Virus record (IMG/VR): IMGVR_UViG_3300017780_003276
Location: 1-39,774 of that record
Reading direction: 5' to 3' (one strand)
Length of the DNA: 39,774 bases
Source of the DNA: a virus
Lineage: Duplodnaviria > Caudoviricetes
The notes beneath the pieces were generated by a model. That model made no database searches and was not told the origin of the DNA. It saw only the letters and a list, made by a program, of their open reading frames with translations. A program made the position numbers and the translations under genes. Shown here one piece after another: positions 6,750 to 12,147 of the stretch. The first letter of the stretch is position 1; each line of letters begins with the position of its first letter.

Positions 6750-7262
6750 AACAGAGATACGGTAGGTCTCAAGTTATATTAATCATTAACCGCTCACTTT
6801 AGGGGAGCAACAAAAACACAGGAGGTTTATTATGACATTTATTAAAGAATGGGAACTCGATCCCTTTGATCTTCTTTGGAAGAATTTTTTCGACTCAAAA
6901 CCACATTTCACAACACTTATTGACAAAGTTAACTATCCAGTAGACATCTACGAGACGGAAGATGGTATTTACTTTGAACTAGCCGTTGTAGGCTTAGACA
7001 AGGACGATATTAATATTCTAACGGAGAGTGACACGTTACGCATCACATACCACAAAGATCCAGACACCCGTCTATATATCTACAAAGGTATCGCACGCAG
7101 AGCTTTTGACCTGGCTTGGAAGATTGCAAATAAATATGATCTATCAAAGTTAAAAGCTAGCTTAGATAAAGGACTGCTTAAACTAGAAATCCCATATGCG
7201 GATACAAAGCAGCCTAAAAAAATAACAATTAAATAATCAAAAGAGGCCTACCGTAATCTGTT
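6750..7262 (+). repeat. Inverted repeat pair flanking hsp20 (6750-6770 / 7243-7262)
   Basis: AACAGA-GA-TACGGTAGGTCTC pairs with GAGGCCTACCGTA-A-TCTGTT: 13 bp (one U.G) plus 6 bp. Confidence 0.85.
6832..7236 (+). CDS. hsp20: Small heat shock protein (Hsp20/alpha-crystallin)
   Basis: YPVDIYE, AVVGLDKDDI, YKGIARRAF, ASLDKGLLKLEIP, C-terminal IxI (ITI); SD AGGAGGT at 6820-6826. Confidence 0.93.
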   Translation: MTFIKEWELDPFDLLWKNFFDSKPHFTTLIDKVNYPVDIYETEDGIYFELAVVGLDKDDINILTESDTLRITYHKDPDTRLYIYKGIARRAFDLAWKIANKYDLSKLKASLDKGLLKLEIPYADTKQPKKITIK

Positions 7263-7445
7263 ATGTTTAGATATCAATTTTTAAATTTCAATAATAATTT
7301 GTATATTATTAAGAAGCTTATAAAAGAGGATCACGGACCTATCATAGAAGTATGGAAGGAACAGCTCAGAGCAGATACAGTACTTAAAAAGGATGGTATA
7401 TTATACTTCCTTGAATTAGTACCAGAAGCAGTAATTACAAATTAA
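7263..7445 (+). CDS. Hypothetical protein (60 aa) between hsp20 and groES
   Basis: ATG ORF filling the gap in operon orientation. Confidence 0.7.
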   Translation: MFRYQFLNFNNNLYIIKKLIKEDHGPIIEVWKEQLRADTVLKKDGILYFLELVPEAVITN

Positions 7446-7461
7446 AAACAAAATAAAGACT

Positions 7462-7755
7462 ATGGTAAAATTAAAACCCGAAAACGGCTACATTGTATTG
7501 AAGCCAATTGAAGAACGAGAAGAAACCTACGGTAACATTGTTATCCCGGATCTAGGAAAAGAAAGACCTGAGTTAGGTGAAGTAGTTGCAACAAGCGATA
7601 CTTTTAATTGGCACACAGGAGAAATCGTAAGAACTAAACTTACCCCTGGCGCTAAAGTATTAATTCCAAAACTAGGAGCCTCAAGGATTTCAATTAAAGG
7701 AGATGAATTTTTTATTGTAAAAGAACAAGACATTTACGCACAATTAGAAGACTAA
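7462..7755 (+). CDS. groES: Co-chaperonin GroES
   Basis: LKPENGYIVL, mobile-loop TYGNIVIPD, GEVVA, GAKVLIPK, FFIVKEQDI; upstream of groEL. Confidence 0.92.
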   Translation: MVKLKPENGYIVLKPIEEREETYGNIVIPDLGKERPELGEVVATSDTFNWHTGEIVRTKLTPGAKVLIPKLGASRISIKGDEFFIVKEQDIYAQLED

Positions 7756-7770
7756 AAACAAACAGTTATT

Positions 7771-7818
7771 ATGAGTACAACAACAGTATTTGGAATAGAG
7801 CTAAAAAACAATTATTAA
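7771..7818 (+). pseudogene. Relic of a second groEL 5' end (15 codons)
   Basis: MSTTTVFGIELKNNY* resembles GroEL start [19 protein letters not shown] ggaatagagctaaaaaacaa vs ggaactgagttaaaaaataa. Confidence 0.55.
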
Positions 7819-7837
7819 TAATTAAAAAGAATTACAA

Positions 7838-9502
7838 ATGAGTCACACAGAGTTTTTACAAGGAACTGAGTTAAAAAATAAATTACTAGTAGGTATTAAA
7901 AAGTTAAATCAAGCAGTATCGTCAACGCTGGGTCCTGGAGGTAGAACTGTTTTAATACAGGGGCCTGGTGGAGAGGTTAAGGTAACAAAAGATGGTGTAA
8001 GCTGCGCAAAAGCATTTGGGAAGCTAGAAGACCAAGTAGAAGACTTAGGTGCGCAGTTAGTGAAACAAGTATCAATCAAATCCGCTAATGAAGCGGGTGA
8101 TGGTACAACAACGTCAACATTGCTAGCAGCTACAATGGTGGAAGAGGGATTGAAACTAATTAATCAAGGATCTAACCCAGTAGAAGTTAAAAAGAGTATT
8201 GATAGTTATACCAAACTTGTTATAGAGCAATTAAAAGGGCTCGCTAAGGATGTAGCAACTCAGGAGCAGATTAAAGATGTAGCCACAATATCAGCTAATG
8301 GCGATGTTGAAGTAGGAGAGCTTATCTCAACAGCAATTGAAAAAGTTGGTAGAGAAGGTATTGTGACATTAGAAGAATCTAAAACAGGAGAAACTACATT
8401 AGAGGTAGTAGAAGGTATGCAGTTCGATCGCGGTTACAAATCACCGTATTTTGTTACTAACAATAGTACAATGCAGTCTGTATTAGAGGATTGTTATATT
8501 CTAATCTACGATGGTCGTATTTCAACAGCAGCAGATTTACTTAACGTATTAACAAAGGCTAACTCTGAAAATAAAGCATTGCTAATCATAGCAGATGATA
8601 TTGGTGACGAAGCACTTGCAACCTTAATCGTTAATAAGATGAGAGGTATTGTTAAAGTATGTGCAGTTAAGGCACCAGACTACGGAGACCGTAAAACATT
8701 ATTACTTGAAGATATGGCAATCTTAACAGGTGGTCAAGTTATATCAAGAGATAAAGGTTACAAATTAGATAAACTGACACCAGCTCAACTAACAGGTTTC
8801 TTAGGCACAGCTAGAACAGCAACAGTATCAAAAGACGAAACAACAATTATTGATGGTAGTGGAAAGGAAGAAGCTATTGTACAGAGAGCTGGTGAGATTA
8901 AAGATCAGATTGAAAAAGCAACATCTTTCTTTGAGAAAGAAAAGTTACAAGAACGCTTAGGTAAATTAGTAGGTGGAGTAGCAATCATTAGTGTTGGAGG
9001 TAATTCTGATATTGAGATTAGAGAGAGAAAGGATAGAGTCGAAGATGCATTATTTGCAACAAAGGCAGCCTTAATTGAAGGAGTTGTGCCTGGAGGCGGT
9101 ATTGCATTAATTGAAGCTTTAAACGGCTTATCAACTAACCCAAAAGAAATGTCAGCCGATCAGACAAGAGGGTATGAAATTGTTAAGAAAGCATGCTTTG
9201 CACCTTTTAAAGTAATCTTACGTAATTGTGGCATAGATGACTACTATACAATCCTAAGGAATTTATCTGATAAACAAACTGGTGATGGTAAAGTATTATA
9301 TGCATACAATGCAAAGACAGGTGAAATTGTTGATGCAGCAGCTACTGGATTATTAGATCCAGCAAAAGTAACACGCACAGCATTAGAGAACGCAGCGTCA
9401 GTAGCTGGTACTATTCTAACAACAGAGAGTGTTATCTTTGAAAAGAAAGCAGAGAAAGATAATAACAATGCAGGTATGGATATGATGGGTGGAATGATGT
9501 AA
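7838..9502 (+). CDS. groEL: Chaperonin GroEL
   Basis: [56 protein letters not shown]-type tail. Confidence 0.98.
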
Positions 9503-9505
9503 GAG

Positions 9506-9536
9506 TTGGATAATTGAAAAAAGGTTCGTATGTTTA
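9506..9536 (+). promoter_or_regulatory. Bacteroidota-type -33/-7 promoter (TTG-N20-TATGTTTA)
   Basis: Matches TTTG-N19-21-TAnnTTTG with final G->A; same spacing at five sites. Confidence 0.7.
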
Positions 9537-9540
9537 GTAT

Positions 9541-10873: not shown

Positions 10874-10884
10874 AGGTCTTTTTT
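10854..10884 (+). terminator. Intrinsic terminator
   Basis: GACCTGAG-GTACCT-CTCAGGTC followed by T6. Confidence 0.85.
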
Positions 10885-10943
10885 ATTGAACACCCAAAGA
10901 GTACAGACGAGTAGTAACTTTTATAAGATAATCAACAAAAAAG

Positions 10944-10975
10944 TTTGGTAATTCAAACCCTTTTTAGTACCTTTA
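10944..10975 (+). promoter_or_regulatory. Bacteroidota-type promoter (TTTG-N20-TACCTTTA) for denV
   Basis: Motif and 20-nt spacer; ATG 4 nt downstream. Confidence 0.7.
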
Positions 10976-10979
10976 CTTT

Positions 10980-11375
10980 ATGACAAGGATTAATATAGGT
11001 GTTCCACCAATTCAATTAGAGAGTAAACATTTAATAGCCGAGCATAGAGAGCTCAAACGAATACCAAACGTAGTAGGCAAAGGTCGCTACAATCTTAAAA
11101 ATGTACCACCACAGTTTACACTAGGAAAAGGCCACGTATCTTTTTTCTACGATAAACTAGGATATTTAAAGAAGAGGTATATAGAGTTATACGAGGAGTG
11201 TAAAAAGAGAGGATTTAATGTTCAAAGTTATATATCATCCTGGGATAATGTACCGCATAGTCTAATGAATGATTATACACCTACTGAGAGGGATATAGCT
11301 ATTGTTAAAGAGAGGATCGCAGATAGATTAGCTAATCCATTAGCAAAACAAAAGAAACAAATAAACACGATATAA
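10980..11375 (+). CDS. denV: Pyrimidine-dimer DNA glycosylase (T4 endonuclease V family)
   Basis: MTRIN N-terminus (catalytic Thr2), HLIAEHRELKRI, FTLGKGHVSFFYDKLGYL. Confidence 0.93.
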   Translation: MTRINIGVPPIQLESKHLIAEHRELKRIPNVVGKGRYNLKNVPPQFTLGKGHVSFFYDKLGYLKKRYIELYEECKKRGFNVQSYISSWDNVPHSLMNDYTPTERDIAIVKERIADRLANPLAKQKKQINTI

Positions 11376-11377
11376 AC

Positions 11378-11629
11378 ATGGCAAACATTTATTATTTTTC
11401 AACGGAATACTGTGGCCCCTGCAAAATGTTCAAACCAGTAGTACAAGAGGTAATGGGACAAACAGGTAGGTCAGTTCAGTTTATAGATGCACAACATAGT
11501 CCAGAGATGGCAGCAAAGTACAATGTATCATCAGTACCAACAATTATTATTGAAGATGGTCACAACGTAGTTAAACTAGTTGGACCTCAATCAAAAGCTA
11601 AATTAGTTGAATTATTTTCAAATATATAG
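11378..11629 (+). CDS. Thioredoxin-like protein
   Basis: YCGPCK active site, YNVSSVPT cis-Pro motif. Confidence 0.9.
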   Translation: MANIYYFSTEYCGPCKMFKPVVQEVMGQTGRSVQFIDAQHSPEMAAKYNVSSVPTIIIEDGHNVVKLVGPQSKAKLVELFSNI

Positions 11630-11654
11630 AAAAAAGTTGCTAAATAATTAGCAT

Positions 11655-11766
11655 ACAGGAGTGGCGGAAGCAGACAGGTCGACATAGTCTGCAAGTTAGA
11701 CGCTACCAGATGTGGTGGGCATAGGGAAACCGAGCCGTATCGGGGCAGATCCGATCTCCTGTACCA
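11655..11766 (+). ncRNA. Atypical tRNA-like RNA (class II fold, encoded CCA, no canonical anticodon loop)
   Basis: Acceptor ACAGGAG/CTCCTGT+A+CCA; Leu-like D arm GCGG..ACGC with inserted hairpin; T arm ATCGG-GGCAGAT-CCGAT; long variable arm with GAAA loop; GC-rich island. Confidence 0.8.
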
Positions 11767-12147
11767 AGTTACTGTTCTTTGACATAAAGGAGAAATAAAA
11801 CATGAATACACAATTAGCATTTGCTTTTGGTATGCTTGCGATGATTGCTATCGGTATGATGGTAGTGATTGTTGTAGGTATGGTAAAGGTGCACAGACAA
11901 GGAAACAAAATTATATCACTTGAAAAGTGGATTGATGATACAAACATATCTGCAGATCAAAACGTGCAGGTACTAGAACGAAGTATCTCAGAAGAAGTTC
12001 GATCATTACTGAATGAAATCACAGCAGTACACCAGCGAATTAGCGAAGTACACTCTATAATGGATTCACGATTCGATAAGTTCGAAGATAAAATAACAAA
12101 GAAACAAATTTTAAAAGACTAAAAAAATAGTCGAAGAACAGTAACTT
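11766..12147 (+). repeat. Inverted repeat pair flanking ORF 11802 (11766-11783 / 12130-12147)
   Basis: AAGTTACTGTTCTTTGAC pairs with GTCGAAGAACAGTAACTT: 18 contiguous bp, one U.G. Confidence 0.9.
11802..12122 (+). CDS. Single-TM coiled-coil hypothetical protein
   Basis: N-terminal hydrophobic helix then heptad-rich segment; SD-like AAAGGAG at 11786-11792. Confidence 0.8.
   Translation: MNTQLAFAFGMLAMIAIGMMVVIVVGMVKVHRQGNKIISLEKWIDDTNISADQNVQVLERSISEEVRSLLNEITAVHQRISEVHSIMDSRFDKFEDKITKKQILKD

Follow-up and report, generated by a model that had tools for sequence, protein, structure and literature searches.

Introduction

The protection and cutting of bacterial mRNAs are ascribed mainly to local hairpins, and conserved 5′-3′ helices that enclose an entire cistron have been described for rRNA and for a few silenced mRNAs. 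RNase III makes staggered cuts that leave 2-nt 3′ overhangs, and its signals in phage T7 are local hairpins located between genes. In rRNA, the leaders and trailers of pre-16S and pre-23S form helices of 25–40 bp, accompanied by boxA/Nus antitermination and RNase III cutting (PMC10250234). RNase III substrates are described with a minimum of about 11 bp beside the cut and an ideal of about 22 bp, cellular substrates being shorter than 20 bp, and G-C pairs at some positions of the proximal box block the E. coli enzyme (PMC3867540). In the Staphylococcus aureus icaR message, pairing of the 5′ and 3′ UTRs covers the Shine-Dalgarno sequence, silences the message and creates an RNase III substrate (PMC3868564). 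Type I toxin mRNAs also carry 5′-3′ long-distance interactions, the ends being paired around a short ORF (PMC8594479).

The window analyzed here is a whole stretch of 39,774 nt from an uncultured freshwater phage, in which helices were read on the + strand. A preliminary description proposed that three of its genes, hsp20, a beta-barrel gene and ORF 11802, are each closed by pairing of their own leader and trailer, and knew of no such described phage mRNA strategy. We have likewise found none in print.

Results

Three gene-bracketing helices

All ungapped + strand helices of at least 12 bp with arms 30–2500 nt apart were collected; among the 505 found, the three pairs hold energy ranks 1, 2 and 4. 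The hsp20 pair (6750–6770/7243–7262, +) has 19 bp with one U-G and one 2×1 internal loop (−29.1 kcal/mol), and the ORF 11802 pair (11766–11783/12130–12147, +) has 18 bp with one U-G (−25.0 kcal/mol). The beta-barrel pair (10261–10280/10853–10873, +) consists of a 13-bp block and a short outer block with an internal loop between them, and contains two T-G positions (−24.5 kcal/mol). The preliminary description had given exactly these coordinates, and correctly counted four positions with T in the 5′ arm and G in the 3′ arm (one in hsp20, two in the barrel, one in ORF 11802). The internal loops of hsp20 and the barrel had gone unmentioned. The opposite-strand duplexes are 4–5 kcal/mol weaker, and the arms are, as it said, unrelated in sequence between families.

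When own leaders were set against own trailers for 58 genes, z was −4.5, −5.5 and −6.1 for the three pairs. Comparison with shuffled sequence, which had been proposed as a check, gave 0 of 300 dinucleotide shuffles as good as the real pair in each case. An alignment score of at least 32 is reached by 3 of the 58 window genes, against 0.23 expected from mismatched leader/trailer pairs, and each helix is present in both the MFE and the centroid structure of its whole unit. The observation is real, and no other gene-bracketing helices of the window are as strong as these three. Their support is unequal: the hsp20 and ORF 11802 helices are well supported, and the beta-barrel pair of the window is poorly supported.

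The hsp20 unit

The features of this unit are as follows.

6736–6742, + strand: TATTTAT, a putative phage promoter word ahead of the hsp20 unit
6750–6770, + strand: hsp20 5′ arm, with conserved core 6761–6768 and a presumed cut between 6760 and 6761
6792–6808, + strand: small conserved leader hairpin with a ROSE-like CGCU opposite GGAG, leaving the ribosome site uncovered
6820–6825, + strand: Shine-Dalgarno-like AGGAGG by sequence, missing from most homologues
6832–7236, + strand: hsp20, small heat-shock protein gene, 134 aa (PF00011, E 8.7e-12; phrog_432)
7243–7262, + strand: hsp20 3′ arm, abutting the start codon of the next ORF
7263–9502, + strand: downstream cistrons by profile matches, a 60-aa ORF (7263–7445), groES (7462–7755) and groEL (7838–9502)

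The helix is kept in all 48 distinct hsp20 loci (in each, no more than 2 of 200 shuffles score as high as the real pair), and in 46 of them the own partner outscores the mean foreign homologous partner. An unguided consensus fold of the family recovers the long-range helix, with pairs that alternate between A-U (24) and G-C (18), or C-G (25) and U-A (17), of 43 loci. By parsimony, each of three pairs has 8 or more branches with a double change, a number that may overcount independent events because the two most variable pairs switch jointly between two states and resolution of the protein tree is poor. The strand-fair count is 41 G-U versus 19 A-C. Distant phage hsp20 genes (L059, L283) also have helices, of unrelated sequence. 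The family median is 19 bp, with 7–13 bp inside and 3–15 bp outside a conserved G in 47 loci. Sequence conservation begins at 6761, with a core rich in G-C (AGGYC); the outer half shows little conservation and pairs weakly (−5.4 kcal/mol).

The word TAT[TG]TAT precedes the arm in 44 of the 48 loci. Its sense-strand copies are mostly intergenic (35 of 62 in the relative G001, whose genome is 4% intergenic). In the consensus fold of 43 loci, the columns of the leader hairpin are paired in 39–43, and neither the hairpin nor the hsp20 leader has an Rfam match. GGAGG occurs in a minority of the 48 loci, and groES and groEL matches are present in most. No boxA word was found in hsp20, nor a terminator after the gene.

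The ORF 11802 unit

This unit follows a tRNA-like RNA.

11655–11766, + strand: tRNA-like RNA by its fold, with a hairpin in the D loop, without a conserved anticodon and with a CCA end; found in 5 other phage loci
11766–11783, + strand: ORF 11802 5′ arm; 11774–11786 is the boxA-like word GTTCTTTGACATA
11788–11792, + strand: Shine-Dalgarno-like AGGAG, immediately inside the helix (13 of 15 loci)
11802–12122, + strand: ORF 11802, 106 aa, with a hydrophobic N-terminal segment; 126 homologues, without a Pfam or PHROG family
12130–12147, + strand: ORF 11802 3′ arm, helix partner of 11766–11783

The helix is kept in all 15 distinct loci (again with no more than 2 in 200 shuffles that score as high), the own partner outscores the mean foreign homologous one in all 15, and the unguided consensus fold again recovers the long-range helix. 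The strand-fair count is 13 G-U versus 0 A-C, and the median helix is 17 bp. For hsp20 and ORF 11802, selection on a + strand RNA duplex bracketing one cistron, which the preliminary description had suggested for all three genes, is well supported by covariation and G-U bias.

The first base of the 5′ arm is also the last base of the CCA of the tRNA-like RNA, a point absent from the preliminary description; neither ARAGORN nor Rfam makes a call on this RNA. A tRNA, tmRNA or tRNA-like RNA directly precedes 14 of the 15 genes. The exact word GTTCTTTGA occurs in 12 of the 15 loci, and GTTCTTTGACA occurs in 8 of 12 bacterial 16S-23S rRNA spacers, the 23S stalk starting within it in 2 of 3 measurable operons. 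In the host, the 5′ half of the word stays outside the stalk, whereas the phage helix takes in the whole word. By its position the word in the 5′ arm is a putative boxA, with NusB as a putative ligand.

The beta-barrel pair

The third gene differs from the other two in its 3′ arm.

10261–10280, + strand: beta-barrel 5′ arm, with a weak local hairpin as alternative
10314–10835, + strand: gene for a 173-aa protein resembling an outer-membrane beta-barrel (PF13505, E 2.3e-5, which does not reach the curated cut-off)
10853–10885, + strand: beta-barrel 3′ arm (10853–10873), which shares sequence with an intrinsic terminator (hairpin plus U tract)

Several of the 67 homologues of the gene are named outer membrane protein. 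Most of the 3′ arm belongs to the terminator hairpin 10854–10881, whose loop and 5′ strand it covers; the preliminary description did not mention this hairpin, which competes with the pair in the window. A significant pair occurs in 9 of 64 loci, mostly through a different helix. Complementarity kept by compensatory change does not extend to this family, and selection on a bracketing duplex is poorly supported here. Most likely the helix seen in the window is recent and specific to its lineage, not a conserved stalk. For this gene only, the leader might invade the terminator hairpin as a long-range anti-terminator, or the match might be a recent by-product of a duplicated hairpin; we regard this as possible but doubtful. 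The arm's position over the terminator would suit it, and so would the energies, −16.0 kcal/mol for the hairpin against −26.2 for the leader/trailer duplex, which is predicted to win at equilibrium (P 0.89–0.97). L061/L118 also keeps complementary loop words in the leader hairpin and the terminator. However, the local hairpin forms faster than a helix with a 570-nt range, 55 of the 64 loci are without a significant pair, and ten carry another short helix upstream of their terminator. L118, the single close homologue with a similar terminator (70% identical), has only about 9 bp.

Distribution and processing enzymes

In four relatives (G001, G002, G004, G005), 1–2 of 195–239 genes score at least 32, against 0.3–0.7 expected. 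The hsp20 gene is among them in each, and these four genomes have no barrel or ORF 11802 match. A genome-wide strategy is rejected on these counts, so that the architecture described as recurring is confined to particular genes. None of 29 bacterial hsp20 loci scored (30 were fetched, the ORF being not located in one), by which inheritance of the hsp20 helix from the host is rejected; it was also absent from two of two cyanophage genes and from the hsp20 of G050 and G051 (0/2).

RNase III, RtcB, RNA_ligase and bS21 were absent from 5 of 5 relatives, and phage-encoded processing is rejected on these absences; a T4 Rnl1 search was uninformative because it matched no control. RNase III is present in all 31 genomes of the likely host phylum. 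A Mini-III substrate, for which the host would encode Mini-III and the helix would carry the preferred word of that enzyme, is not supported: 30 of the 31 genomes gave a single PF00636 match, nearly all in long open frames. The best GroEL matches, at 39–65%, are scattered over assemblies and point to no one host.

RNA contigs

Assembled contigs came from four lake metatranscriptome runs (X1–X4; RNA only, depth 4–20, unstranded; 32 of 96 pieces listed), and such contigs cannot fix RNA ends. Among the pieces listed, contigs start at 6761 in X2 and X4, which is unlikely to be a transcription start since the promoter word lies 11–29 nt from the conserved G. Contigs end at 7245–7250 in X1, X2 and X3, short of 7254 and with no terminator there. 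In X2 one contig has its start at 7250, whereas a clean two-strand cut predicts 7255, 5 nt further on. In X1 and X3, the ORF 11802-type contigs of a relative begin about 10–11 nt from the inner end of the helix, an estimate made on loose ends (35 and 36 letters, with 30 visible). Starts in mid-helix, about 10 nt from the inner end, in both families are a weak hint in favor of cutting. An X1 contig identical to the window (11752–12048) spans the intact ORF 11802 5′ arm, and X1 and X3 contigs run through the barrel 5′ arm.

Discussion

A probable leader-trailer stalk and its rivals

The leaders and trailers of hsp20 and ORF 11802 are complementary and co-evolving, and therefore likely pair into a stalk of about 19 bp, in the coding-strand RNA to judge from G-U bias and folding. 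Our favored reading, held with slightly better than even confidence, is that these are rRNA-style stalks at which host RNase III likely cuts, so that each gene would become a monocistronic mRNA with sealed ends. The medians of 19 and 17 bp, with 7–13 bp inside and 3–15 bp outside the presumed cut, suit the enzyme. From size, geometry and contig starts, it would cut near the middle of the helix and free the gene from a longer transcript; for hsp20 the predicted sites lie between 6760 and 6761 and between 7254 and 7255. The excised mRNA would remain closed by about 10 bp, which may shield it from exonucleases and uncouple it from what lies beside it, either the orf-groES-groEL message, which has its first start codon directly against the helix, or the tRNA array. 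The most speculative step is that the boxA-like arm of ORF 11802 may load the host Nus complex and aid helix closure. RNase III excision, one of the roles listed in the preliminary description, thus agrees with helix size, the boxA-like arm and contig starts, and less well with hsp20, which lacks boxA, and with some contigs.

Some observations stand against cutting. The G-C-rich core AGGYC of hsp20 may fall on those positions of the proximal box where G-C pairs block the E. coli enzyme. The ORF 11802 arm is intact in the X1 contig, and the X2 contig starts at 7250 instead of 7255.

The helix might stay uncut and protect ends made by a promoter or by tRNA processing, while blocking 3′ exonucleases at the trailer. 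We consider this unlikely. It would explain why the 5′ arms start where the transcript presumably does (4–20 nt past the promoter word in most hsp20 loci, a few nt at most from the 3′ end of the tRNA in ORF 11802), why the 3′ arm sits just after the stop (median 12 nt) with no terminator following hsp20, and why an intact arm is seen in RNA; contig ends 10–12 nt inside the outer edges could reflect assembly erosion. Yet two studies share the start base 6761, where conservation begins, the outer half of the hsp20 helix is weak, and in some ORF 11802 loci (L104, L106) a separate terminator directly follows the 3′ arm. Those terminators, and the pairing of U runs behind some 3′ arms with A's of the 5′ arm, also led us to reject a long-range terminator. 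A translation switch, rather improbable in our judgment, would have the closed helix hide the downstream start region (hsp20) or the standby site beside the Shine-Dalgarno sequence (ORF 11802), confining translation to a short window as in the icaR and type I toxin mRNAs (PMC3868564, PMC8594479). In 27 of 47 hsp20 loci the core helix is indeed followed by the next start codon after 3–12 nt, and 13 of 15 ORF 11802 arms end 18–21 nt before the AUG, beside AGGAG. Against it, the next start is 17–51 nt away in the other 20 hsp20 loci, the hsp20 arm ends 46–97 nt above its own AUG, the Shine-Dalgarno sequence is itself unpaired in the window fold, and in neither unit does the trailer pair with it. 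Such a switch would be compatible with cutting.

Circular mRNA, in which the helix would join ends for ligation, was another role considered earlier, and we now think it very improbable. A mid-helix cut would leave adjacent ends, and RtcB occurs in 10 of 14 control genomes, including Bacteroides thetaiotaomicron; but RtcB and RNA_ligase are absent from the five relatives, the hsp20 contigs are linear, and no back-junction occurs at the three genes among the pieces listed from the four runs, which is weak evidence because contigs drop rare forms. Two backward joints in X1 (12949 to 12230 and 12950 to 12235) were rejected as circular RNA, as they lie in the next gene and connect two A-rich tracts of 90% likeness. 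An RNA thermometer is suggested by the frequency of ROSE elements on hsp20 genes (PMC3669281) and by the CGCU/GGAG resemblance in the leader hairpin. It was rejected, and we give it hardly any credence, since the helix is predicted to be fully paired from 10 to 55 °C; the hsp20 ribosome site is also uncovered, and the same design occurs on a gene unrelated to heat shock. Terminal inverted repeats of small mobile cassettes, acting in DNA, are largely excluded and have a negligible probability. The ORF 11802 unit does stand behind different tRNAs in different phages, but G-U exceeds A-C, the arms are unrelated between families, hsp20 remains linked to groES and groEL, and there is no transposase among the 53 window proteins scanned, in line with the preliminary description.

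The presence of the helix in 47 phage hsp20 homologues, its re-making with unrelated sequence in distant phages and its absence from the tested bacterial hsp20 genes point to a phage means of uncoupling one gene from its operon. In Bacteroidota, the stalk could be made into a transferable cassette for adjusting mRNA stability. More broadly, and quite tentatively, phages may have repeatedly borrowed host rRNA maturation for single mRNAs, with a stalk that is boxA/Nus-loaded where the word is present and cut by RNase III while its ends stay paired; this is more than we would expect to hold in full. It would define a class of sealed mRNAs with their own control of stability and translation, arisen independently for chaperone, membrane and outer-membrane genes.

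Comparison with known systems

The hsp20 leader is structured and has a CGCU-like word opposite GGAG as in ROSE elements, but the phage motif is CCGCU instead of U(U/C)GCU and the long-range helix is not predicted to melt (PMC3669281); with no Rfam match and a hairpin lying upstream of AGGAGG, the leader is not assigned to ROSE. ORF 11802 resembles the type I toxins in encoding a small protein with a hydrophobic N-terminus, whereas the phage units show no Shine-Dalgarno occlusion and hsp20 is a chaperone (PMC8594479). As in icaR, leader and trailer of one mRNA pair, but the phage gene's own ribosome site is outside the helix (PMC3868564). The likeness to the T7 early polycistronic mRNA is that host RNase III would split a phage message at helices shorter than about 20 bp (PMC3867540); unlike the T7 signals, the strands in the window are 350–570 nt apart and enclose a gene. 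The rRNA stalks share a long-range, covarying 5′-3′ helix that brackets one unit, tRNA neighbors, and the host spacer boxA-like word found in the ORF 11802 arm (PMC10250234). They differ in that the phage helices enclose a protein-coding cistron, have about 17–19 bp and are cut by prediction, and in that the boxA-like word is wholly inside the ORF 11802 helix and missing from hsp20. Enclosing no rRNA, the phage helices are not members of the stalk family; they would work like the rRNA stalk.

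Leader-trailer helices in the window

Three genes possess leaders complementary to their own trailers, where the preliminary description had placed them. The features, all on the + strand, are:

6750–6770 / 7243–7262, +, 5′ and 3′ arms of the hsp20 helix
10261–10280 / 10853–10873, +, arms of the beta-barrel pair
11766–11783 / 12130–12147, +, arms of the ORF 11802 helix
11655–11766, +, tRNA-like RNA ending in CCA

The pairs stand as described, except that two of the three contain an internal loop missing from the earlier list. By energy they rank 1, 2 and 4 among 505 long-range + strand helices, and for each of them none of 300 dinucleotide shuffles does as well (z −4.5, −5.5 and −6.1). 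With free energy alone, 5–24 of 3306 mismatched leader/trailer pairs match the three; a score rewarding compact helices exceeds 32 in 3 of the 58 window genes, against 0.23 expected. They are the best-ranked intergenic pairs of the window, and the MFE and centroid folds of each whole unit include its helix (3/3). The helices are real and selection acts on two of the three, while their mechanism we infer. The notion of a genome-wide strategy is not borne out, as only 1–2 genes per genome exceed the threshold in four relatives, hsp20 being one of these every time. In one relative (G002, 52520–52771), an 83-aa gene has a gappy AT-rich leader/trailer match scoring 43.

The window, an entire virus record of 39,774 bases, has about 35% G+C, and almost all of its genes lie on the + strand. 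It encodes a family A DNA polymerase, iscU, hsp20, groES, groEL, a beta-barrel-like protein, a pyrimidine-dimer glycosylase, thioredoxin and a long glycosyltransferase cluster. A 16-kb glycosyltransferase and sugar-nucleotide gene cluster lies at 14685–30743, and a 1475-aa protein with arrays of 42-nt and 51-nt repeats at 1779–6206. Relatives detected through hsp20 include genomes of 155–183 kb (terminal repeats in 3 of 5), and pieces identical to the window are present in lake metatranscriptomes. The A-rich leaders, the barrel gene and an rRNA-spacer word suggest a Bacteroidota host; GroEL comparison gave no host name.

Conservation and probable pairing in RNA

Of sixty viral hsp20 loci (41–64% identity), 11 were duplicates, one lacked a stop and another a leader; the other 47 and the window make 48. 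In 48/48 loci the real score is reached by at most 2 of 200 shuffles, and in 38 by none. A consensus fold of 43 loci, computed without guidance, recovers the helix at window 6761–6768 / 7245–7252, where two adjacent pairs covary (A-U 24 / G-C 18 and C-G 25 / U-A 17). For each of three pairs, parsimony on the protein tree places double changes on 8 branches or more, a count that may be too high because two pairs flip jointly and the tree is poorly resolved. Two distant phage hsp20 genes (L059 and L283) have helices of equal strength and unrelated sequence; none was found at two others (L280 and L281), nor around the 29 bacterial and 2 cyanophage hsp20 genes tested.

A putative promoter word precedes the hsp20 5′ arm in 44/48 loci, and the AUG lies 46–97 nt downstream of that arm's end. 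The stop codon is a median 12 nt from the 3′ arm, and the next start codon follows the core by 3–12 nt in 27/47 loci and by 17–51 nt in the remainder. No terminator was found downstream of the window hsp20. The word RGTTWYG, which resembles the start-codon context of the window's phage group, directly follows the 5′ arm and often also stands between stop and 3′ arm (L001–L058).

The ORF 11802 helix is kept in 15/15 loci, the window and 14 homologous loci (37–79% identity, two nearly identical to one another), with significance judged by shuffles; most outer pairs have changed on both sides. When mismatches are counted so that wobble earns no credit, G-U exceeds A-C by 41 to 19 in the hsp20 helices, besides 120 other mismatches, many probably at ragged ends, and by 13 to 0 in the ORF 11802 helices. 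Since G-U outnumbers A-C inside the helices, the sequences favour pairing in the coding-strand RNA. The proposed selection on a + strand RNA duplex is well supported for hsp20 and ORF 11802 by the G-U excess and covariation.

In 14/15 loci the ORF 11802 5′ arm begins a few bases from the 3′ end of a tRNA, tmRNA or tRNA-like RNA; in the window its first base is the A of the CCA. The tRNA-like family (the window, L099, L100, L102, L105 and L108) has a 7-bp acceptor stem and a D-loop hairpin insert; its anticodon arm varies, with a TTCG loop in two loci. It is probably non-decoding, because ARAGORN and Rfam did not detect it. The tmRNAs (L100, L102, L103, L106, L107, L111 and L112) have tag peptides of 23–29 residues, and a GOLLD RNA lies near the homologue in L105 (3487–3890). 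The 5′ arm at 11771–11786 is also complementary to 13297–13312, the start of ORF 13298, 1.5 kb downstream (about 16 bp, one + strand A-C mismatch), a match that may be chance.

The word GTTCTTTGA occurs in 12/15 ORF 11802 5′ arms. Among bacterial rRNA spacers of the phylum to which two records titled Chitinophagaceae and Flavobacteriaceae belong, 8/12 have the same word as exact GTTCTTTGACA. Both 23S ends could be located in 3 operons, and in 2 of these the 23S leader-trailer helix starts in the 3′ half of the word. The boxA consensus and the spacer position make the word a boxA-like candidate. PMC10250234 puts a boxA ahead of the 23S gene and presents a model in which boxA-bound NusB keeps hold of the leader until the trailer emerges.

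The beta-barrel pair

Selection on the beta-barrel pair as a conserved stalk is poorly supported. Truncated and duplicate loci and the record of the window itself were removed from 83 loci, which left 63 plus the window, and a helix passes in only 9/64. Ten loci (L117, L132, L139, L162, L164, L165, L168, L169, L171 and L175) have another, unrelated helix of about 10–13 bp upstream of their own terminator, in which a C-G pair has changed to U-A/U-G. Unlike that helix, the window 3′ arm is the 5′ strand and loop of the terminator hairpin; in the close homologue L061/L118 the complementary loop words alone are kept. The window pair is therefore not a conserved stalk, yet it is improbable by chance within the window. 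A motif, GAAAAC...AGAGTAGG, is conserved just upstream of beta-barrel homologues (L130, L133, L134, L137, L179, L182, L183, L185, L186, L189 and L191); Rfam searches of two of these loci gave no match.

Proposed processing by RNase III and its alternatives

We favour, on balance, a reading in which host RNase III would cut near the middle of the helix (in hsp20 presumably at 6760/6761 and 7254/7255) and excise the gene as a monocistronic mRNA. The inner duplex would then stay paired and seal the mRNA ends, while the outer hsp20 duplex would part and free the downstream start region. The grounds are the helix size, the even split at the presumed cut, the host enzyme, and an inner duplex that would hold where the outer one of hsp20 would part. 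The median helix is 19 bp in hsp20 and 17 bp in ORF 11802, and the presumed cut divides the helices about equally. According to PMC3867540, the distance from cut to distal box is about 11 bp with 22 bp ideal, cellular helices are shorter than about 20 bp, and imperfect sites are cut on a single strand. RNase III is present in 31/31 genomes of the likely host phylum, and none encoded by phage was found in five relatives. The computed inner duplexes have −18.3 kcal/mol (hsp20) and −14.1 kcal/mol (ORF 11802); the outer hsp20 duplex has −5.4 kcal/mol.

Excision ranks above two alternatives, with which it can coexist: that the helix is left uncut and protects the ends, which is unlikely, and that it is a translation switch, which we consider slightly less likely still. 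Transcripts bear on the cut through assembled contigs from 4 of 11 listed lake metatranscriptome runs (X1–X4 here), with 32 of 96 pieces listed. An hsp20 contig of X2, a variant with 7 differences from the window, covers 6761–7247 and the following contig begins at 7250; others cover 6800–7250 (X1), 6761–6956 (X4) and 7085–7245 (X3). The conserved hsp20 core begins at 6761, 10 nt from the helix inner end. This position is unlikely to be a transcription start site, because the distance from the promoter word to its equivalent varies from 11 to 29 nt across loci. A relative's ORF 11802-type contigs (X1, X3) have 35 and 36 loose letters ahead of 11813; the 30 listed open within the boxA-like word, and the contigs thus start about 10–11 nt from the helix inner end. 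Counter to a clean cut, a window-identical X1 contig covers 11752–12048, the X2 start at 7250 precedes the predicted position by 5 nt, and the barrel contigs run across the 5′ arm. The contig starts are a weak hint of mid-helix cutting, since assembled contigs do not pin down transcript ends, coverage is shallow, the runs are of RNA alone and 32 of 96 pieces are listed. Among the contigs listed from the four runs there are no back-junctions at hsp20, the barrel or ORF 11802. Two backward joints in X1 surround a 236-aa gene (window 12230–12950) between A-rich tracts, and probably come from a relative or are artefacts.

Comparison with known systems

No Rfam family matches the window, and a literature search, largely of open-access main texts, found no such phage mRNA design, though one of the large catalogues of phage RNA candidates may contain it. 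The phage helices differ in position and stability from ROSE elements (PMC3669281). From icaR (PMC3868564) and type I toxin mRNAs (PMC8594479) they differ in that the ribosome site is left open. They would act like the leader-trailer stalk of rRNA, yet what they enclose is an mRNA.
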